DNA from: Candidatus Levyibacteriota bacterium | GTDB lineage: Bacteria > Patescibacteriota > Microgenomatia > Levybacterales > UBA12049 | NCBI GenBank assembly: GCA_052034235.1 | Contig: JBPOIT010000013.1 | Coordinates: 3,257 to 67,256 of the forward strand | Direction: 5' to 3' | DNA length: 64,000 nucleotides | Shown: positions 2,145 through 61,436 of the stretch, piece after piece | Numbering within the stretch: the first letter of the stretch is position 1 | Layout of the letters: each line of letters begins with the position of its first letter | Program-made: the position numbers and the translations under genes | Notes under the pieces: generated by a model | What the model was told of the DNA's origin: nothing | Databases searched by the model: none | Seen by the model: the letters and a program-made list of their open reading frames with translations, nothing else

Positions 2145-3623
2145 TTATTTATTCCGTAGATCAAAAATGATGTATTGGTCGGTTTTTTCTAGGATTTTGT
2201 AGGTTTTGGCAAAAACCATATCGGCTTCTGTTGGGTTGAGAAGGACGAGGTAGCTGGCTCCTTTTTGGACCAGAATTGGCATGTCTGCTTGGAAACTTGG
2301 CCAACCTTTGCGTTTGGTGTGGTACAAAAGAGTCGTATCGCCGGTCATATTGGCAACAACTTTTGCATCTTTAGGAGTTAACCTATCAACTGCAGCACCG
2401 GCAGCGATGATTGAACGATTGTTTATATTGAAATAATCTTTGATTTGTTGCCAGCCAAACCAGAACATACCAACAAGTGCCGCAATAAGGATAATTCTGC
2501 CAGCAGGGAATTTTTTAAATCGTAATGCATAGAGATAATAACTTCCGATTGCAAAACAGATTGAGACACTTGGCATAACAAGAATTTGATAATAATCATG
2601 CTGGACGTTCCCAGTTGCGAAAATGCTGATGTAGAGTAAACTGCTTACGATAAAAGAAAGGAAAAACCACTTTTCTTTCATCTTCCAAAGTTTGAAGACA
2701 CCAAAAGCTAAAATAAGCATACCCGCGTAGCCTGAGATCAGCTTGGTTAAACGCTCATAAAAAAGCCAGCGGAAAAATGATGGTCTAAACCTGATACCAT
2801 TACCATTAAGAAGCCACATATTTGCAGGTACTCCTTCAGGATACTGCGTTATCCATATACGCCAGCCAATAAGTGGAGCGACTGCGATTGCCGCAAAAAA
2901 ATATAATTCCCACACTTTTATAAATCTCCATCCCCACTGTTGAAACACAATAGCAAGCATTGGCAGAACAAAAAACAGAGCATATGGTTTGAGAAGAAAA
3001 GCAGATGATGTGAATACGAGTGCCAAAACAAAAGAGAGATAGGTATTTTTGAGAGATGTTTTTGATTTTTGTTTTTTTCTGTTCACCTTTTCCTCGACCC
3101 ATTTATCAAAAAAATAAATTCCTCCTGTGACAGCAGTCACCATAGTTGTATCTGGCAAAATTGTTCTACCGTAATAAATGTTGTACGGAATAAACATATA
3201 AAAAAACGTTGTCAAAAGTCCAATGGGCTTATTACTATGTTTTGAGACAATCAGATATAAAAAGAGCCCAGTAAGTACCGAGGCAAACATGGAAACAAGT
3301 CTCCCCCACTGCTCAATACTAAATATCCCAAACAATTGATAAAAGCCAGCTTGGAAAAGGTTATAAAGAGGAAATTCGACAAAGCGATATCCTTCCGGAT
3401 TATCTACGCCTGTTTGGATGTTTGAGATATCATCATAACGAGGATGGAGTACATCGTATCCCTGATTTACAAAGTTTCTTGAAACTGCTGAAGTATCAAC
3501 TTGTCTCCAGCTATGCCAATCAGCAATTGGGTTATCAAAACCGTGAAGACGTACAACAAATCCTAAAAGAAGGATACCTGTTAGGATTATCTGGACGGTT
3601 TTTTTATTTTTTAAAGTAATCAT
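2145..3623 (-). CDS. GT-C family integral-membrane glycosyltransferase (GT39/PMT_2-like)
   Basis: 492 aa polytopic membrane protein with N-terminal TM then an aromatic-rich loop (DNPIADWHSWRQVD). No soluble catalytic domain. Confidence 0.5.
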   Translation of the reverse strand: MITLKNKKTVQIILTGILLLGFVVRLHGFDNPIADWHSWRQVDTSAVSRNFVNQGYDVLHPRYDDISNIQTGVDNPEGYRFVEFPLYNLFQAGFYQLFGIFSIEQWGRLVSMFASVLTGLFLYLIVSKHSNKPIGLLTTFFYMFIPYNIYYGRTILPDTTMVTAVTGGIYFFDKWVEEKVNRKKQKSKTSLKNTYLSFVLALVFTSSAFLLKPYALFFVLPMLAIVFQQWGWRFIKVWELYFFAAIAVAPLIGWRIWITQYPEGVPANMWLLNGNGIRFRPSFFRWLFYERLTKLISGYAGMLILAFGVFKLWKMKEKWFFLSFIVSSLLYISIFATGNVQHDYYQILVMPSVSICFAIGSYYLYALRFKKFPAGRIILIAALVGMFWFGWQQIKDYFNINNRSIIAAGAAVDRLTPKDAKVVANMTGDTTLLYHTKRKGWPSFQADMPILVQKGASYLVLLNPTEADMVFAKTYKILEKTDQYIIFDLRNK

Positions 3624-6600
3624 TACTGTCCTTTCATAATCCTACCCTGATCATCAAACATAAATATGACATTTTGGTCAGTTTTTTGTGCAGAGATTTG
3701 AGCTCGTGCATCTTCAATCGTTCCAACATGGTGAACCTGCGGAAGCCGATCACGATAAATAAACCATAGCGCATCATTCAAACCAACTGGGAAGAGCCAG
3801 ACTGAATCATACATATATGGAGCGCCTACAAAATATAAGTTCGTACTATTTGAAAAGCTTTCGTGTTCCAGACGGAAATAAGCTAGTGTTTCTTTGGTAA
3901 TTGAGCTTACTTTGGCCCATTTTTTGCCCATATGCTGATTTTCCTGGTAATAAACAAATGACATGATTGTCACAATAATAATGAGTCCAATGGTTATATA
4001 TTTTTGTTTCATATGCATAAGCACTACTGCTATAAAATTAAGCGCAGCAACAAACATGATGACAAATCCAACAGATGCTAAATAAAGATATCTTGGAGCT
4101 ATATTTCCCAGTCCAAGGAATGGAAGTAAACTAACTGCCGCAAACACCAATCCAAAACACACGAGAACGATTTCGTTATGTTTAAAGACATGAATAAGTT
4201 TTCGTCTAAATGTATAGAGAATAATTCCAACAATTACCATAAGGATCAAAAGTATTGAAGCGGCAAGTAATGAGTCTTCCCTGAGTCCTGAGCGGAGTGA
4301 ATCATACAGAGGAAATGCTGTATTTCCGCCAAAGAATACCAAGAGATAGCCAATGTAGTTTCCTACAAAATTGAACGGCAGATTGAGAAGATTATAACTA
4401 TAATCCCCACCACCACTGAACGCATTGGAGATCGCTCTCATAGCAAAATATGCAGGGACTAAAAGTACAAAAGGCAAATAGTGAAGCATCAGATTTTTCT
4501 TGAGTTTTGGTCTGGTTATGAATAGATCAACCACAACAAGCAGAAGTGGAATAATTACGGCTATTTCATAGGTTAAGAAGGCAAGTATGCTTAAAATAAA
4601 TGCTGTTGTGTAGGAAGGCATTGGATGCTTTCCGTTTCTGAATTTAATAAAGGCAAGTACTACATAGACAATAAACATACTTCCCATCGTTACAGATATC
4701 GTTGAGAACCAGAAAAGATTTTCATGATGAACCGGATGCAGTGCAAAAAGTACTGCAGTAACGAAACTAAGGAATCTCTTTTTAAAGAGTTTTTGTGAAA
4801 GATAATAAACGCCAAGCACGGTTATAAAATGCATAAGAAGCGTGAATAGATGATATCCTTGCGGCTGGAATGAGAAGAGTTGGTAAAGGAAATAAACGAC
4901 TGTTTTATCAAAAGGTCTATAGAAGAAATTATCAGCATTAATAAAGTAACCTGGAATATCTTTCAGTTCTGTCGTTGCTGCCCATTTGAGCCACGTGAAG
5001 TCATCAGCGACAAAAAAGTTACCTATAGATCCTGCGTATGCGGTAAGAATAATGACCAGAAGATAGATGAGTACCATGACTCTGGATGTAAAGAATTGGA
5101 ATAATTCTTGTTTGTAATTAAAGGTTTCCTTTTTATAAAGATATGCACCTCCAACTCCTATACCCAATAACATCCACATAGGTTCAGCTACTTTAGATGC
5201 CTCAAAAACATCGATCAAAATAGCATTTATTAAAAGCCCGACAACCCCTCCAGATAGTCCAAAGAGTAATGCTTTGATAATTGGATCTTTAACCAAAGGC
5301 ACGCTGTTTTTTAAGAAAATGCCTAATATGACAAAGATAAAGAGGAATGATAATAAGCCAACAAGCCCGGTTTCACCAAGTGCCCGAAGATAGTCATTAT
5401 CCGTTGCAAGTGTTAACGTCGAATATCCAGTGCCAAAGACCGGACTGAAAAGAAATGCGTTCCAGTTTCTTGGCCATTCAGCCTGGAAACGAGTTGTAAA
5501 TGAGATATCAAGTGCATATGCTTTTTTGATAAGAAAAGTCCCTGAGATAGATGATATCGCAACTTCATCCATGGTAAGCCTTTTCAATTGTGCATCTGTT
5601 AAAACAGTTGAGAAACCGCTACTTGGTGTCGCAATAGTACTTTTGTCACCTACCATAAAATCACTAGCAGGTGGTACTTCTGAAGCTTTAATTTCTTCAG
5701 CTTCCTTCGTTTTGGCGATAATTTCTTTTAAGTCAGAAGGCAAAGCTTCTTCTGTTGAAACAACCTGTACTTGCTGAATCGTTTTCCCAAAACGCTTAAT
5801 TGTCGCGTCGCTTGATATGGACATGGCGCCTATGCTGATAATCAAAACTGGAATAATCCAACGTTTGCGATTCCAGAAAACAAGCATCGATGTAATACCC
5901 ACAACATATGCTCCAAAAGACGTACGGGAAGAGGTAAAGTTAAGAACATCTAGTGCCAAAATAGCGAGTATAAATAGAAGCGCCTTATACTTAAAACGCT
6001 TTACTGCAAAAAATAATGCAACAAGAATTGGAATGACAAAAACCATGTATGCTGAAAGATCATAGTGCCCTCCAAATGTTGAAGAAACACGCGACGTCTC
6101 TGTTAAACAAAGCGGAATACCTTTTGCAAATTCTTCATTTCCTGTTAAGAATGCCGGAAAACAAAAAGGGTATTTTTCGAAAAAATTAGGGAACATCGCC
6201 CATAAAATCGTGTAGAATCTCTGTCCAAAACCATAAATGACAACACCAAGAACAGTTACACAAAGCGTAATGAGATAAAAATAGACATCCTTAACATGTC
6301 TCACTGTCGCAAATGCGATGAAAAACAGAATCATGTATTCAATTCGCCTTGCGTATTGAAGTCCGGCAACAGTTGGGAAGAAATTTACCAGGTTTGGGGC
6401 AATAAAAAGCAAACAATAAATAAGAGACGCAAGCCCGGCAATCCAGTAGAGAACAATTGCGTATCCTTCTGGTCGAGGTAGTGAAACTTTGCGACGCAGC
6501 AGCTGTACAAACCAAATGATAGCAAGGGTCAGTATGACAAAGTCTTCAAGTCGTATGTAAACCCACGTACGATCGACATGGACACTTGGGAGTTTGGGAT

Positions 6601-6679
6601 AAAGTGCAGTAAAAAGAATTGCAAAAGCAACTCCAAAACGAAGTAAATTATCATCCAAAAACTTCAAGAGTTTTTTCAT
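3623..6679 (-). CDS. 1018-aa fusion: O-antigen-ligase/Wzy_C-like domain followed by a second polytopic GT-C-like domain
   Basis: The N-terminal half contains PVFGTGYSTLTLATDNDYLRALGETGLVGLL, matching the GxGxxxxxxxxx(H/D)NxYLxxLxExGxxG signature of WaaL/PglL/Wzy_C ligases. The C-terminal roughly 480 aa form another multi-TM block (FFVADDFTWLKW...) with a soluble tail. Confidence 0.5.
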   Translation of the reverse strand: MKKLLKFLDDNLLRFGVAFAILFTALYPKLPSVHVDRTWVYIRLEDFVILTLAIIWFVQLLRRKVSLPRPEGYAIVLYWIAGLASLIYCLLFIAPNLVNFFPTVAGLQYARRIEYMILFFIAFATVRHVKDVYFYLITLCVTVLGVVIYGFGQRFYTILWAMFPNFFEKYPFCFPAFLTGNEEFAKGIPLCLTETSRVSSTFGGHYDLSAYMVFVIPILVALFFAVKRFKYKALLFILAILALDVLNFTSSRTSFGAYVVGITSMLVFWNRKRWIIPVLIISIGAMSISSDATIKRFGKTIQQVQVVSTEEALPSDLKEIIAKTKEAEEIKASEVPPASDFMVGDKSTIATPSSGFSTVLTDAQLKRLTMDEVAISSISGTFLIKKAYALDISFTTRFQAEWPRNWNAFLFSPVFGTGYSTLTLATDNDYLRALGETGLVGLLSFLFIFVILGIFLKNSVPLVKDPIIKALLFGLSGGVVGLLINAILIDVFEASKVAEPMWMLLGIGVGGAYLYKKETFNYKQELFQFFTSRVMVLIYLLVIILTAYAGSIGNFFVADDFTWLKWAATTELKDIPGYFINADNFFYRPFDKTVVYFLYQLFSFQPQGYHLFTLLMHFITVLGVYYLSQKLFKKRFLSFVTAVLFALHPVHHENLFWFSTISVTMGSMFIVYVVLAFIKFRNGKHPMPSYTTAFILSILAFLTYEIAVIIPLLLVVVDLFITRPKLKKNLMLHYLPFVLLVPAYFAMRAISNAFSGGGDYSYNLLNLPFNFVGNYIGYLLVFFGGNTAFPLYDSLRSGLREDSLLAASILLILMVIVGIILYTFRRKLIHVFKHNEIVLVCFGLVFAAVSLLPFLGLGNIAPRYLYLASVGFVIMFVAALNFIAVVLMHMKQKYITIGLIIIVTIMSFVYYQENQHMGKKWAKVSSITKETLAYFRLEHESFSNSTNLYFVGAPYMYDSVWLFPVGLNDALWFIYRDRLPQVHHVGTIEDARAQISAQKTDQNVIFMFDDQGRIMKGQ

Positions 6680-6686
6680 AGCTAGT

Positions 6687-7280
6687 TTAACGGAACCATG
6701 CAGCGCGACCTAAGTGATAATGTAACTCTTTTTCACTTCTCTCGCCTATTACTTTGGCAGGTACTCCACCTACAATTTCAAAAGCTCCAACATCCTTTGT
6801 AACAACTGCACCAGCAGCAACAATTGCACCTTTACCTATAGTTACTCCTGGCAAGATGATTGCTCTCGGACCAACAAAGACGTAGTCTTCTATAATAACA
6901 GATTGTGGTACTGCTTTAAATTCCGGATCGTGAATATCATGCTGGCAATTATAGACCATGACTTCGCTCGCAAAATCTACATGATTGCCAATCTGAAGCT
7001 TGGCTCGTCCATCCAGAACAACGCCTTCACCAATTATCGTATCTTTGCCAATCGTAATATTTGAAGGATTATAAAATCTGGCACCTGTGTGAATTGTTGA
7101 TCCTTCACCAATAATCATCCCTCCTGCTCTATAAAAAAATCTCCTAACATGGTGAAATGGAACATGACCTACAATATGCAAAATAAAAATAAAAAATTCT
7201 AAAAGCACTGTATTGGTACGGTTTTTACCCTTGTTATAAAATTCTCTTGAATTAAGTGTTCTACCTTCTCTATCTTTCAT
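6687..7280 (-). CDS. hexapeptide-repeat (LbH) sugar O-acetyltransferase, WbbJ/WcaF-like, with N-terminal membrane anchor
   Basis: Repeated [LIV]G-x4 hexapeptides ([35 protein letters not shown]...[19 protein letters not shown]). One hydrophobic helix near the N-terminus. Confidence 0.7.
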
Positions 7281-7283
7281 ATC

Positions 7284-8420
7284 TTAATGTTTCTTTGCAA
7301 CCTGCTGTAATACTTCAAGTGTTTCCCTTGCAGCTTTATCCCAACTAAATTTTGCTACCTGTTTTTTACCCTTTGCTACTAATTCTTCACGAAGATTTTT
7401 ATCAGTAATAACTTGTGTTATTTTTTGAGTAATATCCTCAACATCTTCAGGGTCTACATATAACGCAGCATCACCGCCTGCTTCAGGCAAACTTGATACG
7501 TTGCTTGTGATAACTGGACATCCTTGTTTCATTGCTTCAAGTACGGGAAGTCCGAAGCCTTCATAAAGGCTTGGCAAAACATAACAAAGCGCATTATTAT
7601 AAAATATTGTGAGTTCATCATCAGTTACATTTTCTAAAAATTTCACAGAACCTTCCACACCATGTTTTTGCGGAGCAGCCAAAATGTCTTCATAAAGCCA
7701 TCCTTTTTTCCCGATAATCACCAATTCCAGATCTTTATTATCTTTGGTTTGTTCGTGATTTTTAATACGAGCAAATGCCTCAATAAGCCTGGAGATATTT
7801 TTACGCGGCTGAAGTGTTCCTACAAAAAGTATAAAATTGCCACTGAGATGATATTTGTCTTGCAGTTGATTCATACCATAAATCCGCGGCTCAAGCGTGG
7901 TAATTTCCTTTATACCAGGATATATCGTCACAACTTTTTCCGCAGATATGTTATATGCTTTGATTATATCATCTTTACTAGAATTACTAATCGTTAACAC
8001 ACGAGCTGCATTTTGGACTGAATATTTTGTCCAACTTTGAAGCTGATAGAGATCAGATTTATTAAATAATTCAGGAAATCGCAAAAAAGACATATCCATA
8101 ACTGAAACAACTGTCGGAATAGGTGAGAAACGAGGTGCATAATGAGTTGGACTAAAAAAGACATCAGGTCTTGGCCTATGAGTATATAAGTCAAGCGGCA
8201 ACCGCCATTGCGTCCATAACTTTCCTGGCCCAAAAACTCTATAATTCCATGTTGTCGTTTCCTTGGGCAAGGTTTGTAATGGTTTGCTCTTTAAATAGAT
8301 TTGATTCGTGATACCTGCACCTTGATTGCGAGAAAACTGCATAAGCAACTGAAATGCATATTCACTTATTCCTACTCGTTTATGTACATTGGCTTCATTG
8401 CCGTCAATTCCAATAATCAT
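7284..8420 (-). CDS. GT4 family glycosyltransferase
   Basis: C-terminal EGFGLPVLEAMKQGCPVITS (EX7E motif). N-terminal IGIDGNEA start typical of the GT4 N-domain. Confidence 0.8.
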   Translation of the reverse strand: MIIGIDGNEANVHKRVGISEYAFQLLMQFSRNQGAGITNQIYLKSKPLQTLPKETTTWNYRVFGPGKLWTQWRLPLDLYTHRPRPDVFFSPTHYAPRFSPIPTVVSVMDMSFLRFPELFNKSDLYQLQSWTKYSVQNAARVLTISNSSKDDIIKAYNISAEKVVTIYPGIKEITTLEPRIYGMNQLQDKYHLSGNFILFVGTLQPRKNISRLIEAFARIKNHEQTKDNKDLELVIIGKKGWLYEDILAAPQKHGVEGSVKFLENVTDDELTIFYNNALCYVLPSLYEGFGLPVLEAMKQGCPVITSNVSSLPEAGGDAALYVDPEDVEDITQKITQVITDKNLREELVAKGKKQVAKFSWDKAARETLEVLQQVAKKH

Positions 8421-8423
8421 AAT

Positions 8424-8972
8424 TTAAACACCTGGATAAATAACACTCAAGCGCTTCTCATCTATTCCCAGAATCTCGATAGCATCTTTTTTTGTCGCTT
8501 CTGAGATACACAGTATATGGCTCGTTTCTTTTTTTACATGTGCTAATTTTCGCTTTTGGGTTTCAACAATCTTTTGTGCTGTTTCCGCGGGATGCTTATA
8601 TATAATTAAATCATAAAGAATTGTCATTTTTTTGGCTTTTTTTACAGGTGGTTCAGTCCAGTCCGAAGTAATAAAAATATCGACATCGCCTATCAGATTT
8701 TCAATCGGCATTATATGAAGTTTATTCCAAAGCAAATCAAGCACACTAGGTGGAAATCGAAATTTTTTAAACGATACTTTTGCATTCTTCGCTTTAAGTC
8801 TTTCTTCCTGATCTGTAATATCTCTTCGCAAACTCGAAAAAAAGAAAACATAGTCGTTTTCTTTATCTTGATCTACCAGTCCCTCTATAAGCTGTCCAAG
8901 GTAATTTGAGACACCTGTGTGTGAAAAAGCGAGCTGAGAAACATCAATGCCAATCTTCATAAAACTAATCAA
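8424..8972 (-). pseudogene. GT4 N-terminal-domain-only fragment (truncated duplicate of the neighbouring GT4)
   Basis: 182 aa beginning IGIDVSQLAFSHTGVSNY (compare IGIDGNEANVHKRVGISEY of 7284..8420). It ends at ...VIYPGV, exactly where the catalytic C-domain should start, and no EX7E half follows. The stop lies 3 nt before the next gene start. Confidence 0.4.
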
Positions 8973-9011: not shown

Positions 9012-9959
9012 TTATTTATCACTCGTATATTTGAGAGGAAATTGATGGGTATAATCACTTTGAGAACGAGTTGTGTGAGAGATATTGATGATGAGATCCG
9101 CAAGAAATCCTGTAAAAAACGATTGTAAGCCACTAATAATAAAGAGTATGCCAATAAAGAGTATCGGTCTCGTACCTACGCGTTCACCATAAGCGTAGTG
9201 AATAAATGTAAGATAGCTTAGGATACCTACACCAATAAAAATAAGGAAAATACCAATAAACCCAAAGAAATGAAGCGGCTTTTTTCCAAATTTGAGAAGA
9301 AAAATGATAGTAAATAAGTCAGGTATATTTTTAAATACCTTTGAAAATCCATATTTTGAATAACCAAATTTTCTCGTATCATGTTCTACGACGACTTCAT
9401 CAACGACAAAGCCTTGTTGATGGAGAAGAAGTGGAATAAAGCGATAAAGACCTCCGTATATATGCAAATTCTGTGCTGCATCTTTTGAAATGAGTTTATA
9501 TCCACAATCAATATCATGAAGTTTCAAACCGAATAATATCCTATTAAGATAGTTAAAAAATTTTGAAATGATAACCATCTTTGATTTGTCTTTTCTGTGC
9601 TTACGCCATCCAACGACAACATCGACGCCTTCCTCATGCTTTTTAAGCAATTTATGAAGCTCCGAGGGTTTATCCTGTAAATCTGCATCCATGGTGACAA
9701 ATACCTCACCCTTTGCAACAGAAAAACCCAGAGCAAGCGCATCAGCCTTGCCGCGATTTTTTTTGAAGGAATAGACGCGAACATGATTGTTCTTGTGTTG
9801 AATCGACTTAAGAACGCTTAACGTGTCATCTGTTGACCCATCATCAACAAAAACAAACTCGTAGTCTTTTGACAACTTGGTAACTTCACGTAATGTCTCT
9901 TCGTAGAAGGTCTTGATACCATCTTCCTCGTTATATGCCGGTACGATAATACTTATCAT
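9012..9959 (-). CDS. polyprenol-phosphate glycosyltransferase (GT2, GtrB/ArnC/DPM1-like) with C-terminal TM helices
   Basis: IVPAYNEE...FVDDGSTDDT...TMDADLQDKP...GWRKHRKDK plus DCGYKL motifs, and two C-terminal hydrophobic helices. Confidence 0.75.
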   Translation of the reverse strand: MISIIVPAYNEEDGIKTFYEETLREVTKLSKDYEFVFVDDGSTDDTLSVLKSIQHKNNHVRVYSFKKNRGKADALALGFSVAKGEVFVTMDADLQDKPSELHKLLKKHEEGVDVVVGWRKHRKDKSKMVIISKFFNYLNRILFGLKLHDIDCGYKLISKDAAQNLHIYGGLYRFIPLLLHQQGFVVDEVVVEHDTRKFGYSKYGFSKVFKNIPDLFTIIFLLKFGKKPLHFFGFIGIFLIFIGVGILSYLTFIHYAYGERVGTRPILFIGILFIISGLQSFFTGFLADLIINISHTTRSQSDYTHQFPLKYTSDK

Positions 9960-12559: not shown

Positions 12560-13606
12560 TTAAGTCTTTTTATATTCTCGCAAACGAATCGCCTGCAATA
12601 ATGCAATAAAATAAAATATAAATGCCCAAGAAGCTGCTCTTTCAGAGATATTTGGCATATTAACTGTTAAATAAAATGGAGATAGTAAAAGAAGTAACGA
12701 GGCAAAAATAAATGTTGGTTTCGTATTAATTCTTCCGACTTTTGCAACAGAATACCACATACCTCCTAAGAAAATGTAAAGTAAATCATTAATAATTTGT
12801 AAAAAGAAAACATCAACTAATACAACACTGATGATGAAGATGACTCCGTAGTTGTTAATAAAGTGAAGCACTATGCGCTTTGCTTTTGTATCTCCAAATA
12901 ATCGTTGTGCAATTGGATTTGCAACACGTGAAAGGACAGGCACAATCGTTATGATATATATGATAAACGGCATGAGGTACACAAAAGAAGAAAAAACAAC
13001 ATCAATCGTAGAGAGAGAATTAAGCGTTTTTCTTTCTATAAAATGCAGAAATAACGACTTGTCAGCTAATAATTCTTCCTTTGAAAATTGATATTTGCTG
13101 GCGAAAACTGGGCTCCTATCATTTAACTGCATAGCATTGTGGGAATTTCCCTTAAGCGATTCCAATTCAAAATAATATGACTTTCCTTTTGAATCTTTAA
13201 TAACTGGAAACCCAATAGGTAAAAAAGGTAATTCATAAATAAATCCTGATCGATACACATTTTCATAGTACCAATTGTTTGCACCTTTCTCTTTAAGTCT
13301 GAATACAAGTGCATCTTCGTCTTTGTAAGCAACCCTTTTTAGAGATTTAAACCTGATTGAAACAATGCCCATGTTGTTATCTTCCGCTTGAAAGACACCA
13401 GTTATTTTATTGCCCTTCAAGATCGGTTTATCGGAGTAATCTCTGAAGATAGATTTGTCGTGATTATTTGAAAAAACGAGAAAACTGCTATCAAAATTTA
13501 TTATGTACCATGACGTAGCCGCTACCCATAATGCTAATAAGGCAATCGGAACGATAAACCATCTGAAAAGTTTCATTCTAAAATTTAGTTTATTTGGTTT
13601 TGGCAT
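12560..13606 (-). CDS. membrane protein of unknown function (N-terminal TM, about 170-aa extracytoplasmic domain, C-terminal multi-TM block)
   Basis: 348-aa ORF in an operon-like position. I recognised no family motif. Confidence 0.45.
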   Translation of the reverse strand: MPKPNKLNFRMKLFRWFIVPIALLALWVAATSWYIINFDSSFLVFSNNHDKSIFRDYSDKPILKGNKITGVFQAEDNNMGIVSIRFKSLKRVAYKDEDALVFRLKEKGANNWYYENVYRSGFIYELPFLPIGFPVIKDSKGKSYYFELESLKGNSHNAMQLNDRSPVFASKYQFSKEELLADKSLFLHFIERKTLNSLSTIDVVFSSFVYLMPFIIYIITIVPVLSRVANPIAQRLFGDTKAKRIVLHFINNYGVIFIISVVLVDVFFLQIINDLLYIFLGGMWYSVAKVGRINTKPTFIFASLLLLLSPFYLTVNMPNISERAASWAFIFYFIALLQAIRLREYKKT

Positions 13607-15734
13607 ATTTCTTTCTCCTTATAGTTGTAACAGACAGTAAAATTATCACACTAACAAAACTTACAGCACTAATCATTGTTCCAATATATGTGTATGTCTG
13701 CGGAACAAAATAGAGGGTCATGTTAAGCGTAATCGATCCGTCTTTATTTGTAATTACTTTCCCTCCGTCCAAAGTTTTTGGATCTATAAAATATGAATTG
13801 AGTTTTGCATTATTTTTTGTGTGAATATTAGCAGGCATGAAGTACTTTTTATCACCTAATACATCTAGCCAATTAAAATCTCCAACTCGCAATCTCCAAT
13901 CAGGATGGTAACTGTCAGCAAAATGGAGATAGAATGGTTTTGTTATATTTTCTATTTTTATATGATATTGTGCATTTGTTATTTTTTCAGAAGTAACACC
14001 TTTGTATTCTATGTCTTTCGTGATTGATTCAGGAATTTCAGTCGTATAGAGGTGTGGTTTAACAGAAGTGTTTTCGTAAACAATAATAGAACCATTATAG
14101 TCATCGACTTTTTTCAAATGAGAAACTTTATCCAGTGTTTTTATATATTCACTTCTGTCTTTACCAAATAATTCAAAAAAATTATCATCATTTGCTTTAT
14201 CAATTTTTGGAATAATAATATATTTAATAGAGGTTACATTTAATAACTGTGCACTTTCAGGCAAAGCATAAAATGCTATAAACTTTTCTCCAAGACTTGG
14301 ATAATCACCTGATTTATCGACATCTTTCCAAATACCTGACGCCATATTTGCTGCACCAACTCTTGGATGTAAATCCGTATTACTTCCCCATCGTGAATCA
14401 GATGGCAACCAAAGTGTTCTGAAAAACGTGTTTTGACTATCTATGTATGAGTTAAATGATTCATACTCCGTAGGCATCGTACGAGTAACAAAAAGTGTGT
14501 CAAAACTGCCAGTTACGAGTGGTTTAAGATTCCAAATGTTTAGCAACACAACGAAGATCACCACTCCATATTTTAATTTTTGATAAATGCCATTATTCCA
14601 GTGCGCCCACACCCACGAAATCAATGCCCCCATTAGTACAGAATAACCAAGAGCTATAATGAAGTAAAATTTACTCGCTTCTCGAAAAGCTCCAAATCCA
14701 GGGAAGTATAAATAAAGCCACATGTATACATCTGGAAAAGGTACATTATTTTGTTTCGCAAGAAAAATACCCACAAGTGTGAGCAAACCAAAAAAGAGTA
14801 TTTTTTTATTTTTTCGGTTAAGATAAAGACCTGTGAATGCGAGTAATGGTGTCAGAAAAAAATAAAACGGTATTGGTTGTGTTATGAAAGGAAAATACTT
14901 TCCACCAGTCCAAAATGGGTGAAACGCAGTGAAAGCAGTATTAATGTCAAAAAATTCTTTTCCAAATAAAGCTCTGTTAAATACTGCGCCTTCTATGGAA
15001 ACTGTTGCAAACAAATACGGTAATATCCAATAAATATTAAATACCCCTACGATGATTAGAGGTATCACTGCATACAAAAAAGTTTTTTTTATAGTCATGA
15101 AGGCTTTTTCAGTTGAAAGAGAAAAAATAAAGTAAAGATAATAACTGAGCGCAATAAGTGTTACTAAATAAAAGGCCCTAAATTCATAAAAGCTGATTAC
15201 GAAGGTAACGAGTCCGCACAAAAGTGCATGTTGCAAGCTTTTTTTCTCCAATGACTGCATAAAAAGAACTATGACAAGCGGGGCAAGTGCAAATCCTACC
15301 ATGAGTGTTAAATGTCCTGTTTGAATAATAAAAAAGTAAGTATTATAAGCATAGACAAGAGCACCCACAAGTGCAGCCAGACGGTTTTGAACTAAATATT
15401 TAATGAAAAAATAAGAGATTGGAATTGTCAAAATCGCAATTGGCCAAAAAAAAGTGATCCTTTCTATATAGCCATAACTAAGTCCAAGATTTGAAAGTAT
15501 TCCCTCAAGTAAAAGGAAAATATAAAATGGTGGAGTGAGATCAATAGAACCAATAGCATAACTTTTCCAAATAATAGGCACACTTAAAAGGCTTTTAGAA
15601 TAATTTGGAAGACTTAACATCCAATCACCATGTGAAAGTATTCCTGAAGAGAATAGCCACACTCTATACGCGAAAAGATGAATAATCGTAATACCTGCTA
15701 CGAGACTATAAAAAAAGAGATTGTGTTTTTTCAT
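13590..15734 (-). CDS. large polytopic membrane protein, probable GT-C-like glycosyltransferase with C-terminal extracytoplasmic domain and terminal TM anchor
   Basis: 714 aa. Roughly 450 aa are hydrophobic, followed by a soluble region with DSYHPDWRLRVGD and a final TM (MISAVSFVSVIILLSV). Confidence 0.4.
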   Translation of the reverse strand: MKKHNLFFYSLVAGITIIHLFAYRVWLFSSGILSHGDWMLSLPNYSKSLLSVPIIWKSYAIGSIDLTPPFYIFLLLEGILSNLGLSYGYIERITFFWPIAILTIPISYFFIKYLVQNRLAALVGALVYAYNTYFFIIQTGHLTLMVGFALAPLVIVLFMQSLEKKSLQHALLCGLVTFVISFYEFRAFYLVTLIALSYYLYFIFSLSTEKAFMTIKKTFLYAVIPLIIVGVFNIYWILPYLFATVSIEGAVFNRALFGKEFFDINTAFTAFHPFWTGGKYFPFITQPIPFYFFLTPLLAFTGLYLNRKNKKILFFGLLTLVGIFLAKQNNVPFPDVYMWLYLYFPGFGAFREASKFYFIIALGYSVLMGALISWVWAHWNNGIYQKLKYGVVIFVVLLNIWNLKPLVTGSFDTLFVTRTMPTEYESFNSYIDSQNTFFRTLWLPSDSRWGSNTDLHPRVGAANMASGIWKDVDKSGDYPSLGEKFIAFYALPESAQLLNVTSIKYIIIPKIDKANDDNFFELFGKDRSEYIKTLDKVSHLKKVDDYNGSIIVYENTSVKPHLYTTEIPESITKDIEYKGVTSEKITNAQYHIKIENITKPFYLHFADSYHPDWRLRVGDFNWLDVLGDKKYFMPANIHTKNNAKLNSYFIDPKTLDGGKVITNKDGSITLNMTLYFVPQTYTYIGTMISAVSFVSVIILLSVTTIRRKKYAKTK

Positions 15735-28855: not shown

Positions 28856-30130
28856 TTATGGTAAAGCAATTTTATGTTTTCTAATGACAAAATAATAATG
28901 CGAAAAGAGTCCAACAACGAGAAAACCAGTAATAGTAACAGAGATTGTTATTATTTGTTCAAATGATTGATGAAATACGTAGATAAGTACGCATTGCAAT
29001 AGTGCTCCTATCAGAATTGGTATATATACTTTTGTTTTTTGAATGGATAAATATAAATTAGCTATTATATAAAGTAATGAATATAAAGAAATAAACACTC
29101 CGAAGAAACCAAGAATGGGGCTCACGATAAGATTTTCAGTCTTTTTTGTAAAAAAGAGTATTGCTTGTTCAGGAAAAAGAAAATATCCTGCAGTCAATAC
29201 AAAAGCAAAAGCAAAGACAATGAGAAAAGACAAATTGAACGTATTCGAAAAACTTTCATTATTGCTCTTTTTTTGAATTATCATTGGAAACATAACTGCT
29301 CCTATTGGTGATGAAATATAGAAAATAACTTTCGCGATGAGTGCCATTGCCGCATAGATACCGGCACTTGTAGGGTCAAAGAAATGTTTTACCAACAAAA
29401 TATCTACAGTTATAAAGGATGTTAAACCCACCCAAGTTAGCATTGAGGGAATTCCATAGCTAAATAATTCCTTTGCTTTTATTTTAGGAACACTTTTATT
29501 TTTAGTAAAAACAAATTTTATAGGAACAAAACTAATAAGATATGCAAGTAGCGCAGAAATAAATATCGCTACTACTGCTCCAAAGACTTTATAACCAATT
29601 ATGATGGCAATAAAGCCAACTATTAACTTTGAGACAGCGCCAACAAAACTAATCATCACTTGTGATTTAAATGCCAATTTTGCCTGAATGAAAGCTATAT
29701 TTATGACACTTATTGTCCCCAAAAATATAATAAAACCTGTTAAGACAAACAAATTCATATCATAGATATGGAGGAAATCACTCACATATGGAATTAGTAA
29801 CAGAAAACCTATAAAGAGTATTACGCCGATAACAAAAAAGAACTTCATTATTTGATAATAAAAACCTCTTGCCATATCTAAATTTCCCTTCGCGAAATAA
29901 GTACCCGCGAAATTTATAACTAAAGGAATCGTTGCTGCCGTAATCAGTGAAGGAAAGGAGAAAACTGAAATAATACTAGCTAATACACCATAATCAGCAT
30001 TAGATAAATTTCTCGTCATGAAGACATTGAAGAGAAAATTAAAAAAGTTTACGAGGAGATTGCCAAGTACAACTATCGAACTACCATAGATTAAAGGATG
30101 TTTCGCTAATTTTTTGACTTTCTCACGCAT
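28856..30130 (-). CDS. Wzx-type oligosaccharide flippase (MOP superfamily, polysaccharide biosynthesis protein)
   Basis: 424 aa with about 12 hydrophobic segments. N-terminal KHPLIYGSSIVVLGNLLVNFFNFLFNVFMTRNLSNADYG matches the Wzx family. Confidence 0.7.
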   Translation of the reverse strand: MREKVKKLAKHPLIYGSSIVVLGNLLVNFFNFLFNVFMTRNLSNADYGVLASIISVFSFPSLITAATIPLVINFAGTYFAKGNLDMARGFYYQIMKFFFVIGVILFIGFLLLIPYVSDFLHIYDMNLFVLTGFIIFLGTISVINIAFIQAKLAFKSQVMISFVGAVSKLIVGFIAIIIGYKVFGAVVAIFISALLAYLISFVPIKFVFTKNKSVPKIKAKELFSYGIPSMLTWVGLTSFITVDILLVKHFFDPTSAGIYAAMALIAKVIFYISSPIGAVMFPMIIQKKSNNESFSNTFNLSFLIVFAFAFVLTAGYFLFPEQAILFFTKKTENLIVSPILGFFGVFISLYSLLYIIANLYLSIQKTKVYIPILIGALLQCVLIYVFHQSFEQIITISVTITGFLVVGLFSHYYFVIRKHKIALP

Positions 30131-30154: not shown

Positions 30155-31207
30155 TTATTTGTTTATGACCTCATTGTATGTCTCAGCTGTCAATTCAGCT
30201 GTTTTTCGCCAGGTGAAATTTTTTGCCTGTTCCAAACCCTTTTCACTAAATTCTTTCTGTAGTTTTTCAGAGTGAAATACTTGGTTTAGTGCTTTTTCAA
30301 TGCTGGAAGCATCATATGCATCAACATATATCGCTGCATTTCCCGCGACTTCTTCAAGTGAACCTTCTTTTGTAGTAATCACAGGACACCCGGCCTGCAT
30401 TGCTTCGATAACAGGCAATCCAAATCCCTCGTATAAAGAAGGGAAAATAAAGACGGATGCCAAGTTATACAGCTGAACTAAATCTTCTGTTGGAACGAAT
30501 CCTAATCTTATGATATTTGATGATGTTTCTGCAAGTTTTTGTACTTTTACTAAATCACTATTCCAAGGATTCGTTGTATCAAAATCCTCTGAAAGTAAAG
30601 CCTTACCCACCATTACGAGAGGAATATCTGTGGCTATCGCTGATTGCATAAGCCTGGGTAGGTTTTTATTCCAGGTTACATCTCCTACATATAATGCAAA
30701 TTTTTCTGGAAGTCTATACTTTTTTCGTATGTCTTCTCTTTTCAATTCATGTGTATTAAGTTTTCTAAATGCTTCACCCGCAGCCAAATGAATAACAAAT
30801 ACTTTATTTTCAGGAATACCCGCAATGCTGACAACATCTCGTTTTGATGCATGTGAATCCGTAATTATGGCATCAACTCCACGCAAATGAAATTTTTGAA
30901 TCTGCCACTTAATAGCTCCTTTCAAACCCGTGGGGAAATGTTTTGGGAAGACAAGAGGAGTCAAATCGTGGACGGTTACAACTGTTTTATACTGCTTTTT
31001 GAAAGGTAGTGTTAAAAAAAATGGATCAAAATATGGATAATGAATAAGATCCATATCTTTGGGGAGCTCTTTTGATGTTATGAAAAAATTATATTGATTT
31101 TCAGGCAAGTATGTAACAAGCGCTTTTTTTAAATATTCGAGATAAAAACCAACACCGCGAACCTTGTGCCCTGATTGTAAAGGAGATATATCAATCGCAA
31201 TTTTCAT
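30155..31207 (-). CDS. GT4 family glycosyltransferase
   Basis: IAIDISPL... N-domain and C-terminal FPSLYEGFGLPVIEAMQAGCPVITT (EX7E). Confidence 0.8.
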   Translation of the reverse strand: MKIAIDISPLQSGHKVRGVGFYLEYLKKALVTYLPENQYNFFITSKELPKDMDLIHYPYFDPFFLTLPFKKQYKTVVTVHDLTPLVFPKHFPTGLKGAIKWQIQKFHLRGVDAIITDSHASKRDVVSIAGIPENKVFVIHLAAGEAFRKLNTHELKREDIRKKYRLPEKFALYVGDVTWNKNLPRLMQSAIATDIPLVMVGKALLSEDFDTTNPWNSDLVKVQKLAETSSNIIRLGFVPTEDLVQLYNLASVFIFPSLYEGFGLPVIEAMQAGCPVITTKEGSLEEVAGNAAIYVDAYDASSIEKALNQVFHSEKLQKEFSEKGLEQAKNFTWRKTAELTAETYNEVINK

Positions 31208-32370
31208 TTTTTATGTTTACCCCTTCGCATATAAATTGTACTTATTTGTACTACACCGTAAACGGACACGAGATACATAACCGGAAGAAGGATTACGATA
31301 TATCTTGCAGTTATTTGTCCAACACTAAAGAAAAGCAAATATACGATTGACCAAACAAGGAGAATTTCAACTTCAGGCTTTCTAGGAAGCTTTTTCATAA
31401 AGTATGCTATAAATGTAATGAGTGTTAGGGTTGTGGTAAGTGGCCACATAAATGTCCATTGGGCCTCTGAAAGAATTGGTTTATCCCCCCACCAAACATA
31501 CCATTGATTAAGATAGAGAAACGGCCAAATTGAAAATGGAAACATAAGCTGACTTTGATGATAGAGGTAAACATATTTTTGTATTCCTAAAAAACTTCGA
31601 ATATTTGGATCATCAAAGAGCACCCTGACATAAGAAAGTAGTAATACGAAAACAGAGAGTGGTGTTGTTGCCGTATATAGAAACAGTTTTCGTTTATTGA
31701 AATTAAGAAGTAAAACGATACCTGCAGCTGTGATAATTGTGACGCCGCTTACAAAAAATTTGGTAGCAATAAAACATCCTAATAAAATACTTGCTAAAAC
31801 AAAATTTTTTGCGTAATGCTTTTTCATAACCAGTGCTTTGTTGAAAAAATAAAAAGTTGGTAATAAAAACATAAGCTGCATTAGATCAAGGAGTGGAGTA
31901 AAAACAAATTGGTTCCTAAAGAGTGGCTCAAAACTAAGAAGCGCAGGAGGTACTAAGGCTAGAATTCTTGAAGAAAATAACTGCGTGCCAAGTAAATAGA
32001 AAAAAATCAAAGCAACGACGCCTACAATGATTGTTAATATATTCTCGTTGTTGAAAAGGTTCCCAAATATACCAATAAGATATCTACCAAGAGGTGGTGT
32101 ATCAACTGCTATGAGAATTGGACTAATTCCTTTTACATAAGCGACGCCTGCATAGGTATTTACTGCCTCATCAGGAATCCAGAATTTTGCATGTTTATTT
32201 GCATACTGTGAATCTTCGTAGGCAAATTTTAATGAAGCATAACGTTTATCAAGATCTCTTGAAATGTACTTTTCTTTTGCTGAAAAAACAGCCGTTCCTA
32301 TATTTACTACAGTAATCAGGATCAGCACAAAGGCTAAAAACGGTTTTATATATTGGCGGACAGTTTTCAT
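31204..32370 (-). CDS. GT39/PMT-like GT-C membrane glycosyltransferase (type B; paralog of 56543..57739)
   Basis: Loop-1 WIPDEAVNTYAG...DTPPLGRYLIG resembles the PMT DE and HPPLGK motifs. SFEPLF is shared with the paralog. Confidence 0.5.
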   Translation of the reverse strand: MKTVRQYIKPFLAFVLILITVVNIGTAVFSAKEKYISRDLDKRYASLKFAYEDSQYANKHAKFWIPDEAVNTYAGVAYVKGISPILIAVDTPPLGRYLIGIFGNLFNNENILTIIVGVVALIFFYLLGTQLFSSRILALVPPALLSFEPLFRNQFVFTPLLDLMQLMFLLPTFYFFNKALVMKKHYAKNFVLASILLGCFIATKFFVSGVTIITAAGIVLLLNFNKRKLFLYTATTPLSVFVLLLSYVRVLFDDPNIRSFLGIQKYVYLYHQSQLMFPFSIWPFLYLNQWYVWWGDKPILSEAQWTFMWPLTTTLTLITFIAYFMKKLPRKPEVEILLVWSIVYLLFFSVGQITARYIVILLPVMYLVSVYGVVQISTIYMRRGKHKK

Positions 32371-49168: not shown

Positions 49169-49864
49169 CTAAGCATAAACTGGAAATCTCGTGTTTTCTT
49201 CTGCTTCAATAAGCATATCTCTGAAATCCGCGATGATACGTTCTTCAAGACTGGAAAGCCCTGGCTGCTCAACCATTCGCACATCGACCGGATCCATAAG
49301 AAGTTTAACAATATGCAATTTGTTAGCCGCAACAGCAGCTCCTGTTGCTGTGATATCTAGAATACCATCACATCCAGGAACTGCATACTGAAGCGCCTCT
49401 GTAGAACCAGGCATTGCCCAAACCTCAACAGTATCTGCAAATAAATCTCCTGCAATACCTGGAAATTTGGTAACAATGGTACTACCTCTTAAATCATCGG
49501 ATACAGGTTCTCTGCCTTTTTCGTCAAGAACCCGATTTCTCAAAGAGTTAGTGACTCCAATAAATAATGTCCCGCTATTCGGAATAGTTGGGATAGGCTC
49601 GCCTTGCTCTCTCATTCCTGCATTCCAAAGGATATCACCTCCTGTTATCCCCGCTCTTGTCTTTGTTCTTTCACTAGTAACAATTTCAGGTACACTACTC
49701 GGACGAATAAGCAACATTTCAATTCCCAAGCGATCAACTGTTACAAGATTCTGCTTTGTCTCAACAGGAATTGCTAAACCCGCACGTCGTAATTGCATAT
49801 TTACCGGCTTTCCTAATTCACCTGTTGGAACTGCAATTTGCACTCTATTAAATTTTTCAGTCAT
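49169..49864 (-). CDS. hisG: ATP phosphoribosyltransferase, short (HisZ-dependent) form
   Basis: Start chosen at ATG 49864, preceded by AAAGGAGG 7 nt upstream. The ORF-track frame extends to 49915 but would run into the terminator. MTEKFNRVQIAVPTGEL..., LLIRPSSVPEIVTSERTKTRAGITGGDIL, and MPGSTEALQYAVPGCDGILDITATGAAVAANKL match HisG signature blocks. Confidence 0.75.
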   Translation of the reverse strand: MTEKFNRVQIAVPTGELGKPVNMQLRRAGLAIPVETKQNLVTVDRLGIEMLLIRPSSVPEIVTSERTKTRAGITGGDILWNAGMREQGEPIPTIPNSGTLFIGVTNSLRNRVLDEKGREPVSDDLRGSTIVTKFPGIAGDLFADTVEVWAMPGSTEALQYAVPGCDGILDITATGAAVAANKLHIVKLLMDPVDVRMVEQPGLSSLEERIIADFRDMLIEAEENTRFPVYA

Positions 49865-49896
49865 ATTAATCCTCCTTTCTTTAATTTTTTTTCCAC

Positions 49897-49952
49897 AAAA
49901 AAACCTTTCGTTCACTACTTATTACGAAACGTAATAAATAAGGAACGAAAGG
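49897..49952 (-). terminator. strong hairpin plus U7 (second terminator-like element of the hisG leader)
   Basis: The minus-strand RNA forms a perfect 10-bp stem (CCUUUCGUUC...GAACGAAAGG) with an extended inner stem, followed by U7 (49903..49897). It lies between the T-box core and the hisG RBS. Confidence 0.5.
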
Positions 49953-61370: not shown

Positions 61371-61436
61371 GTAGCATCGTCATTCGCACTTACAGCTAAA
61401 TTACCTAAGTATGAGTGGCGATTCTTTGTTTTTACA

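Follow-up and report, generated by a model that had tools for sequence, protein, structure and literature searches.

The question raised by this locus in Candidatus Levyibacteriota is what a single polypeptide could do that joins an O-antigen-ligase-like domain to a second polytopic glycosyltransferase-like domain. The gene lies at 3623..6679 on the minus strand of the window (the whole stretch of 64,000 nucleotides that we analyzed, to which all coordinates refer) and is a single ORF of 1018 aa with an ATG start and a stop codon at 3623-3625. The initial annotation had reported this ORF without its strand; the motif strings that it quoted are all found in the translation (PVFGTGYSTLTLATDNDYLRALGETGLVGLL at aa 413-443, FFVADDFTWLKW at aa 555-566, and HPVHHENLFWF at aa 648-658). 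It had also named a frameshift or sequencing error as a concern and proposed a search for the same fusion in related genomes. The fusion survives both: we found >118 independent full-length homologs of 44-99% identity, and one unbroken fusion ORF is present in 71 of 80 species-representative genomes or loci, at identities down to ∼30%. Informative labels among the fusion-carrying genomes are Levyibacteriota, Gottesmanbacteria, Microgenomates, and Patescibacteria. Rare relatives do look split (L086, L091, L015, and L027), as expected if two neighboring genes had been joined via a frameshift, a missed stop codon, or an assembly error; however, in L086 the split comes from a TAG, in frame, where the N module otherwise has an invariant Glu codon, the breaks in L015 and L027 do not fall at the domain boundary, and the full-length AF2 model is confident (pLDDT 82.8, pTM 0.83). 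Such an artefact is scarcely credible, and the comparative data already refute it: the fusion is real, a membrane protein conserved widely among tiny, uncultured bacteria of the CPR/Microgenomates type.

The N module (aa 1-520; 5120..6679, minus strand, as are all features of the gene given below) has ∼12 predicted TM helices with its N terminus inside and, as judged by Pfam, Foldseek, and topology, belongs to the Wzy_C/GT-C_B superfamily. Its Pfam Wzy_C match (aa 238-446; 5342..5968) scored 34.3 bits, above the gathering score of 31.7, and 35.7 bits when the N half was searched alone, in agreement with the earlier description of this half as Wzy_C-like. Foldseek with the full-length model returned WaaL (7tpg_B; E 7.8e-4), a match lost when the C half alone was the query. 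A soluble insert of about 90 aa had been said to interrupt the domain; we place a variable extracytoplasmic insert at aa 298-395 (5495..5788), in the large outside loop. It measures 93-116 aa in 119 of 119 aligned family members, is modeled with pLDDT <50 in the full-length AF2 model, and has a conservation (majority-residue frequency across the 119 members) of 0.43 versus 0.68-0.73 for its flanks. It truly interrupts the Wzy_C domain, because removal of its core (aa 301-380) raised the Wzy_C score from 35.7 to 44.6 bits.

Three N-module residues, R252 (codon 5924..5926), R397 (5489..5491), and D427 (5399-5401), fall opposite E. coli WaaL R215, R288, and H338 in hhalign, equivalences derived from a profile-to-single-sequence alignment that is weak (E ∼0.06) and from motif similarity. 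The WaaL residues at these positions are functionally important, and PglL conserves H349 as the counterpart of H338 (PMC3643930). R252, a putative diphosphate ligand, is kept in 119/119 fusions, and R397 in 119/119 fusions and in all 65 relatives that carry the N module alone or in an alternative fusion. D427 lies in the catalytic-loop motif (aa 413-443; 5351..5443), GxG...A-x-D427-N-D-Y-L-R432-x-x-G-E436-x-G, and is Asp in 119/119 fusions and 64/65 of those relatives. In CAZy clan GT-C1, two Args bind diphosphate, and Asp or Glu replaces the ligase His in Wzy-type polymerases and SEDS, but not in ligases (PMC10920833). The N module shares this Arg-Arg-Asp pattern with SEDS and inverting Wzy-type polymerases and, for that reason, most likely polymerizes a repeat unit or otherwise transfers it to a glycan acceptor.

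The C module (aa 521-1018; 3626..5119) is, in its predicted structure, an autonomous GT-C_A-fold glycosyltransferase with ∼11 TM helices. AF2 of the C domain by itself gave pLDDT 95.0 and pTM 0.94, and Foldseek with this domain placed GT-C_A enzymes or related polytopic ER enzymes at ranks 1-29, including STT3, ArnT, PglB, AglB, DPY19, PMT, AftA, ALG3, and one GPI-transamidase subunit; OST enzymes, which use lipid-PP-oligosaccharide donors, and ArnT scored equally well. Autonomous folding of the C half and conservation of both modules bear out the proposal of a second, independent GT-C-like module, which also exists as a stand-alone gene in two relatives (L088 and L089). It had been described as a multi-TM block of ∼480 aa with its own soluble tail: the block is indeed polytopic, and its C-terminal end is a small alpha/beta domain (aa ∼940-1018; 3626..3862, from DSSP of both models) that topology parity predicts to be extracytoplasmic, but its length is 498 aa. 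The motif FFVADDFTWLKW in the first outside loop (4982..5017) carries D559 and D560, a putative catalytic acidic pair by conservation and topology; D560 is kept in 119/119 and D559 in 116/119 members, and stand-alone C relatives retain the acidic motif. The module is under every Pfam and NCBIfam family threshold, with sub-threshold matches to two GT-C-clan families, PTPS_related for the module itself (19.8-21.4 bits, cutoff 26.4) and GtrII for one relative (P0188); the WWDYG and DxD signatures are absent from it.

The chain as a whole appears to consist of two autonomous polytopic glycosyltransferase modules with ∼23 TM helices, joined by a linker (aa 514-532; 5084..5140) that topology and positive-inside analysis place in the cytoplasm and that is the site of the natural split in L091. 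Lys and Arg make up 33% of inside loops versus 6% of outside loops, and 56 of 56 invariant non-TM residues across both modules lie outside; in this topology model, the catalytic faces of both modules are directed outward.

The fusion sits in a conserved arrangement, acetyltransferase-(GT2)-fusion-PMT_2 GT-C, and its neighbors described here are also on the minus strand. Downstream is a PMT_2/PMT GT-C_A gene (2145..3623; 492 aa) whose start overlaps the fusion stop by 1 nt (TAATG) and whose orthologs adjoin the fusion in 65 of 71 loci. Upstream are a WcaF-like hexapeptide acetyltransferase gene (6687..7280; present in 66 of 74 loci) and two GT4 genes (7284..8972), also conserved in related loci, of which one encodes a GT4 glycosyltransferase (7284-8420) and the other, a separate small gene, the GT4 N-terminal half only (8424-8972). 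Farther upstream is a gene for a PgfS/ArnC-like GT2, similar to polyprenyl-phosphate sugar synthases and with two C-terminal TM helices (9012..9959), which scored 143.7 bits with NCBIfam PgfS and 138 bits with ArnC, each under its equivalog cutoff, and is a candidate supplier of a lipid-P-sugar donor. Related loci have a Bac_transf priming enzyme and DUF4012 downstream; DUF4012 is associated with CPS/EPS clusters (PMC6744442). We found no priming transferase within the window and saw no GtrA-type small flippase; Wzx-type flippases are encoded in the window, with no Wzx gene in the tightly conserved module. A 388-aa polytopic ORF (31204-32370) that matches no Pfam family adjoins a Wzx gene and could be a conventional Wzy of another sub-cluster.

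Other lineages combine the N module differently. In L095 the N module has a gene of its own, which overlaps a PMT_2 gene, and P0219 and P0231 have it joined directly to the PMT_2 ortholog at the corresponding syntenic position, so that the C module is dispensable in the N-PMT_2 lineages. Since these N-only and N-PMT_2 relatives form a sister clade separate from the N-C fusions in the N-module tree, the N module has joined GT-C_A partners at least twice. It is always paired with such a partner, in cis or in an adjacent gene, and at 35-60% identity across a class-level group its family shows more conservation than is usual for a Wzy.

The reading that we favor, although with no better than even confidence, is that the fusion is a bifunctional glycan-assembly enzyme acting outside the cytoplasm, with a polymerizing N module and a glycosylating C module; as a single enzyme, it would probably both assemble and decorate a surface polysaccharide rather than serve as a classical O-antigen ligase. 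The neighboring GT4/GT2 enzymes and acetyltransferase would supply a repeat unit, and the N module would bind the Und-PP-linked oligosaccharide through R252 and R397, activate the acceptor hydroxyl with D427 as base, and polymerize the repeat unit or otherwise transfer it onto a glycan acceptor. The C module (via D559/D560) and the translationally coupled PMT_2 enzyme would then add sugars donated by polyprenyl monophosphate to the same product, the fusion holding the two steps physically together. The operon, a conserved set of sugar-building enzymes, speaks for this reading, as do the N-PMT_2 pairings and fusions of other lineages as Rosetta-stone evidence. The evidence also agrees with the initial proposal that a single polypeptide both transfers a lipid-linked glycan and extends or modifies what results. 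Against the reading, the residue equivalences with WaaL come from a weak alignment, an acidic base is compatible with transfer en bloc to non-self acceptors (protein or lipid), a GtrA-type flippase, a Wzx in the module, and a priming transferase in the window are all missing, the 388-aa ORF beside a Wzx gene is a candidate conventional Wzy, the N family is more conserved than is usual for a Wzy, and OST enzymes match the C module as well as ArnT does.

The original view, which makes the N module a WaaL/PglL/WsaB-like ligase or protein O-oligosaccharyltransferase working en bloc, is weakened by its residues and gene context; we consider it doubtful, though the likelier of the two remaining alternatives. 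The N module would move a preassembled Und-PP-glycan onto a protein (S-layer or pilin) or lipid, with the GT-C_A modules priming the acceptor by PMT-like O-glycosylation or modifying the glycan. Wzy_C membership, the WaaL fold match, retention of both diphosphate-binding Args, and partners of the PMT/PMT_2 type, a family that contains protein O-mannosyltransferases, agree with such an activity, and conservation far above that of typical Wzy polymerases would fit a conserved acceptor. However, 119/119 fusions have Asp where WaaL and PglL conserve a His, the PglL_A motif (PF15864) found no match even at E≤10, neither the window nor related loci have a pilin or S-layer gene next to the fusion, no other obvious target gene adjoins it, and CPR bacteria, which lack a Gram-negative envelope (PMC6744442), offer no LPS acceptor. 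The roles could also be reversed, with N acting as a Wzy-type polymerase while the C module (or PMT_2 partner) is a terminal transferase that, using a lipid-PP-oligosaccharide donor as in OST/PglB-type GT-C_A enzymes, moves the finished Und-PP-linked polymer to its final acceptor. Some enzyme must anchor polymer in monoderm CPR bacteria, N is universally accompanied by a GT-C_A partner, and STT3, PglB, and AglB are among the best C-module fold matches; yet ArnT matches equally well, WWDYG and DxD are lacking, the soluble tail is only ∼80-100 aa versus the large periplasmic domains of OSTs, a C-module relative is weakly GtrII-like with a lipid-P-sugar synthase-like GT2 nearby, and N-PMT_2 lineages do without the C module. 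We regard this division of labor as unlikely.

No PDB chain detectably matched the fusion in sequence. Like the O-antigen ligase WaaL (CAZy GT121; PDB 7TPG; E. coli K-12), the N module has the Wzy_C family and fold, ∼12 TM helices with a large outside loop between TM9 and TM10, Args at the R215 and R288 positions, and an HNxxLxxxxExG-like motif, kept as DNDYLRALGETG; unlike WaaL, it has an invariant Asp for the catalytic His, a ∼100-aa family-specific loop insert, a fused second glycosyltransferase, and a host without lipid A-core. PglL/PilO-type O-OTases share the Wzy_C core and an active site that is periplasmic or extracytoplasmic, whereas the fusion lacks the PglL_A motif, an H349 equivalent, and an adjacent pilin or target gene. 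The oligosaccharyltransferases STT3, PglB, and AglB (GT66) belong to the best structural matches for the C module (E ∼2e-5, TM ∼0.5), which in contrast lacks WWDYG, DxD, and a large soluble domain. Inverting Wzy-type polymerases and SEDS (GT-C1: GT119 and GT125-GT129; PMC10920833) have one or two Args plus Asp/Glu at the ligase His position, as in the N module, whose donor would likewise be Und-PP linked and whose cluster also contains sugar-nucleotide GTs and, in relatives, a priming transferase; classical Wzy proteins, however, are much less conserved than the N family, no SEDS Pfam match was found for the N module, and fusion of these families to a GT-C_A module is not described in the literature searched. 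ArnT (GT83), PMT (GT39), and GtrII-type three-component extracytoplasmic systems differ in that the C module is sub-threshold for all families and covalently joined to a Wzy_C module, with no GtrA-like flippase found; nevertheless, the C module shares with them the GT-C_A fold, the acidic pair in the first outside loop, a small C-terminal soluble domain, an ArnT-like size (∼500 aa), and an ArnC/PgfS-like GT2 in the operon region.

The fusion gene occupies a single ATG-initiated frame of 1018 codons on the minus strand (3623-6679), opposite a plus-strand frame rich in stops, and the three peptides quoted in the initial annotation all lie within its product (aa 413-443, 555-566, and 648-658). 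The G+C content of the region (∼36-41%) is similar to that of its surroundings. The gene starts 8 nt past the stop codon of an upstream acetyltransferase gene (6687-7280, minus strand), and its TAA stop shares one base with the ATG of a downstream GT-C gene (2145-3623, minus strand; the PMT_2 partner) in the sequence TAATG, that ATG being preceded by an AAGGA element. Among genomes sampled at one per GTDB species, we found 103 relatives and studied the loci of 80: 71 of the 80 encode an intact single fusion ORF of ≥950 aa, seven are cut by contig ends, and two are broken, at approximately aa 231 and aa 739, away from the domain boundary. The same fusion is therefore present, intact, across related genomes, which rules out the frameshift or gene-joining artifact that the initial annotation had named as a refuting condition.

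A search of 5.8 billion proteins with the fusion protein returned 1392 matches. Nearly all of the best 120 of these are 1007-1082 aa long, with 99-100% query coverage and 44-99% identity; those that are named are called "O-antigen ligase family protein" and come from Levybacteria/Levyibacteriota or Patescibacteria. Informative labels of the related loci are Levyibacteriota, Gottesmanbacteria, Shapirobacteria, Microgenomates, and Patescibacteria. Many contigs in one series of loci (L006-L085) carry this Patescibacteria-type operon under labels such as "uncultured Gammaproteobacteria," Acidiferrales, Sulfotelmatobacter, Methylomirabilota, or Lysobacterales, which look like placeholders or mis-binning. 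Literature searches turned up nothing relevant on the fusion architecture or on CPR O-antigen ligases (CPR bacteria are the group of small uncultured bacteria that includes Microgenomates). Public databases already list the family under a generic label, which is probably misleading and, taken strictly, probably wrong.

The N module (aa 1-520) matches Wzy_C (PF04932) at aa 238-446, scoring 34.3 bits in the full protein and 35.7 bits in the N half, above the gathering score of 31.7. The N-half score rises to 44.6 bits once the core of an insert (aa 301-380) is excised, arguing for a genuine Wzy_C domain with an interrupting insert. This insert (aa 298-395) measures 93-116 aa in every family member, shows lower conservation than the flanking sequence, and has pLDDT <50 in the model. 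PF04932 is also found in the precomputed annotation of most homologs. The full-length AF2 model (pLDDT 82.8; pTM 0.83) matched WaaL (7tpg_B) in Foldseek with an E value of 7.8e-4 and TMt of 0.49, a match that is lost with the C half alone. Because of the Pfam match, the insert evidence, and the 7TPG fold match, we place the N module in the Wzy_C superfamily (structural class GT-C_B); the model predicts a WaaL-like fold of ∼12 transmembrane (TM) helices with a large outside loop bearing the catalytic residues. At E ≤ 10 the N half had no Pfam match to PglL_A, O-antigen_lig, Wzy_C_2, or FtsW/RodA. NCBIfam gave nothing usable for either half (its sole match, IctB-like, scored 17.6 bits, far under the cutoff), nor did PDB sequence searches with the full profile and each half give a meaningful match.

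Aligning the N-family profile with Escherichia coli K-12 WaaL by hhalign, which is weak (E ∼0.06) though two runs agree, equates R252 with R215, R397 with R288, and D427-N428 with H338-N339. [quoted passage not shown] R252 and R397 are invariant in all 119 aligned fusions; the ligase-His position is Asp (D427) in every one of them and in 64 of the 65 N-only or alternative-fusion relatives. PMC3643930 describes R215, R288, and H338 as important for WaaL and conserved in PglL, and the two Args of WaaL bind the lipid diphosphate (PMC3643930, PMC10920833). Within CAZy clan GT-C1, ligases have the pattern Arg-Arg-His, and the SEDS and inverting Wzy-type polymerase families, GT127 excepted, have Asp or Glu aligned with the ligase His (PMC10920833). 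Read against this clan-wide pattern, the Asp at the His position argues that the N module bears a catalytic pattern (R252, R397, and D427) of the polymerase/SEDS type. A cysteine pair, C173/C191, which we considered as a fusion-specific trait, proved to be clade-specific and was rejected as such.

The C module (aa 521-1018) folds confidently by itself (pLDDT 95.0; pTM 0.94), and all of its Foldseek ranks 1 to 29 are GT-C_A or related polytopic ER enzymes (TMq 0.45-0.55), in agreement with the independent second GT-C-like core postulated in the initial annotation. The best matches are STT3 (E = 1.9e-5) and ArnT (E = 2.1e-5); PglB, AglB, DPY19, PMTs, AftA, ALG3, and one GPI-transamidase subunit are also in this range, and Emb arabinosyltransferases appear further down the list. 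By sequence, the module reached no curated Pfam or NCBIfam family (PMT_2, PMT, PTPS_related, YfhO, and others). Its sole Pfam match is PTPS_related at 19.8-21.4 bits (cutoff, 26.4), PF13231 or PF10131 occurs in the precomputed annotation of a few homologs, and a stand-alone relative shows a weak resemblance to GtrII. The predicted structure thus points to a GT-C_A enzyme outside every curated sequence family. Acidic motifs in loop 1 are typical of GT-C_A enzymes, and D559 (116 of 119 fusions) and D560 (119 of 119) are similarly placed: the topology model puts them on the outside face, 8 to 9 residues beyond the first C-module TM helix (aa 533-551), and both are retained in stand-alone C relatives. 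None of the other GT-C genes in the window is a close paralog, so the C module is not a recent duplicate of them.

Combining the helices of the AF2 model with hydropathy gave a topology of 12 + 11 TM helices with the N terminus inside. Lys and Arg account for 26 of 78 residues in short inside loops versus 13 of 211 in outside loops, and all 56 invariant nonmembrane residues fall on the outer face. Together, this bias and the placement of the invariant residues argue that the catalytic centers of both modules are extracytoplasmic; the model puts the linker (aa 514-532) in the cytoplasm.

The window is largely a ∼59-kb glycan island (560-59763), nearly all of it on the minus strand. It contains roughly a dozen polytopic genes of GT-C_A-like type (PMT_2, PMT, PTPS_related/YfhO, and weak GT87), two Wzx-type flippases (28856-30130 and 51103-52632), numerous GT2 and GT4 genes, and genes for aminotransferases, epimerases, and acetyltransferases; no Wzy_C protein other than the fusion was detected there. 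GT4 and GT2 genes adjoin the fusion. In 65 of 71 loci the next gene downstream of the fusion is a PMT_2 ortholog, which overlaps it by 4 nt in 23 of these, and the 197-aa acetyltransferase gene lies upstream in 66 of 74 loci, usually with an intervening GT2 gene of ∼290 aa. Farther downstream, related loci carry GT4, GT2, NTP-transferase, Bac_transf priming enzyme, and DUF4012 genes, the last two in L001, L092, and L093. DUF4012 has been linked to capsular and exopolysaccharide clusters of Gram-positive bacteria (PMC6744442). Of the parts of a Wzx/Wzy-type gene cluster (priming transferase, cytoplasmic GTs, and flippase), we found no Wzx gene within the tightly conserved module and no priming-enzyme gene in the 64-kb window. 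Three-component systems for extracytoplasmic glycosylation pair a GT-C enzyme with a GT2 lipid-P-sugar synthase and a small flippase. Here, a GT2 gene (9012-9959) encodes an ArnC/PgfS-like protein with two C-terminal TM helices; the intergenic gaps hold no GtrA-like small ORF.

Several other features of the island deserve mention. Its density of GT-C_A-like genes is unusual for a genome of ∼1 Mb. Directly upstream of a full GT4 gene (7284-8420) lies a 182-aa gene with a TTG start (8424-8972, minus strand) whose product corresponds to just the N-terminal half of a GT4; this small gene (165-189 aa) is kept in four related loci (L001, L003, L089, and L091), and its conservation indicates a genuine gene of its own, not a pseudogene. 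A HisG-like ATP phosphoribosyltransferase (49169-49915, minus strand) matches Pfam HisG and scores 60.8 bits against TIGR00070 (cutoff, 75.75); this PRPP-using enzyme might serve synthesis of a phosphoribosyl-type lipid-linked donor instead of histidine synthesis. A 388-aa polytopic protein without a Pfam or NCBIfam match (31204-32370, minus strand), encoded between GT4 and epimerase genes and beside the Wzx-type gene at 28856-30130, may be the conventional Wzy polymerase of another subcluster. Membrane proteins of 348 and 714 aa (12560-15734, minus strand), both Pfam-negative and the larger with a weak MmpA-family match, could be transport or flippase components; locus L001 has Pfam-negative genes of equal size at the matching position, beside the module. 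A strand switch ends the island, beyond which (59931-63385, plus strand) lie genes for glutamine synthetase, a Lyase_1-family enzyme, and a HupE/UreJ membrane protein.

Searching 1.84 billion representatives exhaustively with phmmer brought up 281 matches below 1e-30. Among the matches listed, we classed 148 representatives with N and C profiles: 27 are full fusions, 62 are N-only, 15 are C-only, 3 join the N module to another C terminus, and 41 are fragments. Stand-alone N and C relatives retain the key residues. C-only representatives that start near residue 501 are most likely products of broken genes or contig edges, and we accepted genuine stand-alone C genes only for L088, where the gene lies elsewhere in the genome, and for L089/L090, where it accompanies a divergent fusion. 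In L089 (1984-7512), a 1061-aa divergent fusion is followed by a GT2 gene and then a stand-alone C-module copy that is nearer to the C module of our window than is the C half of the L089 fusion itself; the C module thus appears to have been duplicated or exchanged there. A natural fission was considered for L086 (2990-2995) and rejected: an in-frame TAG (a nonsense mutation, or else an error in sequencing) replaces the codon for invariant E493 inside the N module, and gene callers convert the split fusion into N-only and C-only proteins. In L091 (4497-7497), N and C are separate genes of one operon that overlap by 20 nt at an A6 run, and the split is ambiguous because the junction lies in that run. 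The L091 N gene groups in a neighbor-joining N tree with P0165, a stand-alone N protein whose gene in L087 has no adjacent C gene, and the separate genes of this subclade probably reflect secondary fission.

The N module has also acquired a different partner. Proteins P0219 and P0231, encoded in L092 and L093, have a C half that is orthologous to the product of the downstream PMT_2 gene (590 bits) and not to the C module; their genes sit in the operon at the position of the fusion gene, and no separate PMT_2 gene is present. In L095, a lone N gene overlaps a PMT_2 gene by 8 nt, and the operon of this sister clade (L092, L093, and L095) ends with Bac_transf-DUF4012-RecO. All N-C fusions form one clade in a neighbor-joining tree of the N module that is rough and carries no support values; in the same rough tree, a sister clade, most of whose members are stand-alone N proteins, includes the N-PMT_2 fusions. 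This placement, together with P0219 and P0231, argues that the N enzyme was fused with a GT-C_A partner at least twice. Such repeated fusion is Rosetta-stone evidence, from sequence comparison, that the N enzyme and its GT-C_A partners are coupled functionally and probably physically.

The protein joins two autonomous glycosyltransferase modules, outward-facing according to the topology model, within a conserved glycan operon. For its function we give about even odds to a bifunctional enzyme, in which a Wzy-like N polymerase acts alongside glycosylation from polyprenyl-monophosphate donors by the C module and PMT_2 partner. An undecaprenyl-diphosphate (Und-PP)-linked oligosaccharide would be held via R252 and R397, D427 would activate the acceptor hydroxyl, and the N module would most likely polymerize a conserved repeat unit in the manner of Wzy. 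Sugars from the monophosphate donors, for which the ArnC/PgfS-like GT2 (9012-9959) is a candidate synthase, would be added by the C module and the PMT_2 partner.

The initial annotation was right that a Wzy_C domain is joined to a second GT-C-like domain; its further proposal, that the protein could be an O-antigen ligase (WaaL; GT121) or a PglL-type O-oligosaccharyltransferase (O-OTase), we regard as unlikely. Such an enzyme would share the Wzy_C superfamily and the two Args with the N module, yet the conserved ligase His is replaced in all 119 fusions, and PglL_A (PF15864) has no match, whether at E ≤ 0.01 or, for the N half, at E ≤ 10; failing both tests, the fusion should not be filed under either name. 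No gene for an O-OTase target glycoprotein, such as a pilin, lies beside the fusion, the annotated neighbors in the window and related loci being glycosyltransferases, the acetyltransferase, and sugar-modifying enzymes. An O-antigen ligase in the strict sense would also call for a lipid A-core acceptor and an outer membrane; LPS core genes were not detected in the window, and CPR bacteria lack a Gram-negative envelope (PMC6744442). The division of labor might instead be reversed, with the GT-C_A module as the terminal transferase, and the C module does have STT3, PglB, and AglB among its fold matches. We find this distinctly improbable, and a small remainder of the odds goes to other explanations. 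The oligosaccharyltransferase (OST; GT66) signatures are missing, with no WW/WWD (hence no WWDYG) in the whole protein and no DxD in the C half, and the soluble tail of ∼80-100 aa is small compared to the large C-terminal domain of OSTs; the C module is therefore not an OST.

Beyond the bifunctional enzyme itself, the fusion and its translationally coupled PMT_2 partner might form an assembly line, in which polymerization or en bloc transfer of Und-PP repeat units would be obligatorily tied, in one 23-TM chain, to glycosylation from lipid-P-sugars; we propose this only tentatively. If so, it would supply Microgenomates-type CPR bacteria with a conserved envelope glycopolymer that defines the lineage, made by a mode of Wzy-type synthesis so far undescribed, and the fusion would be a natural Rosetta stone for GT-C_B and GT-C_A enzymes acting as a complex. 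Little is understood of how Wzy polymerization or ligation is kept in step with extracytoplasmic side-chain glycosylation by GT-C enzymes, since the partners are usually separate membrane proteins of low abundance. Covalent joining on at least two occasions (N-C and N-PMT_2) argues for a physical complex, and the fusion offers a single-chain target for cryo-EM and for reconstitution of a Wzy-type enzyme with a decorating transferase. More broadly, our findings suggest that a large group of uncultured, host-dependent CPR bacteria, whose envelope chemistry is essentially uncharacterized, shares a conserved glycan operon and, with it, a conserved surface polymer.

As for known systems, the C module is similar in size to ArnT/PMT_2-type enzymes. 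The N module, unlike the 10-TM SEDS proteins (GT119), has a predicted ∼12 TM helices and no FtsW/RodA/SpoVE Pfam match at E ≤ 10, and the SEDS protein FtsW (8p1u_A) matched the fusion model in Foldseek at only E = 0.29. In its R252, R397, and acidic D427, it resembles the inverting Wzy-type polymerases (BP-Pol; GT125-GT129 of clan GT-C1; PMC10920833).
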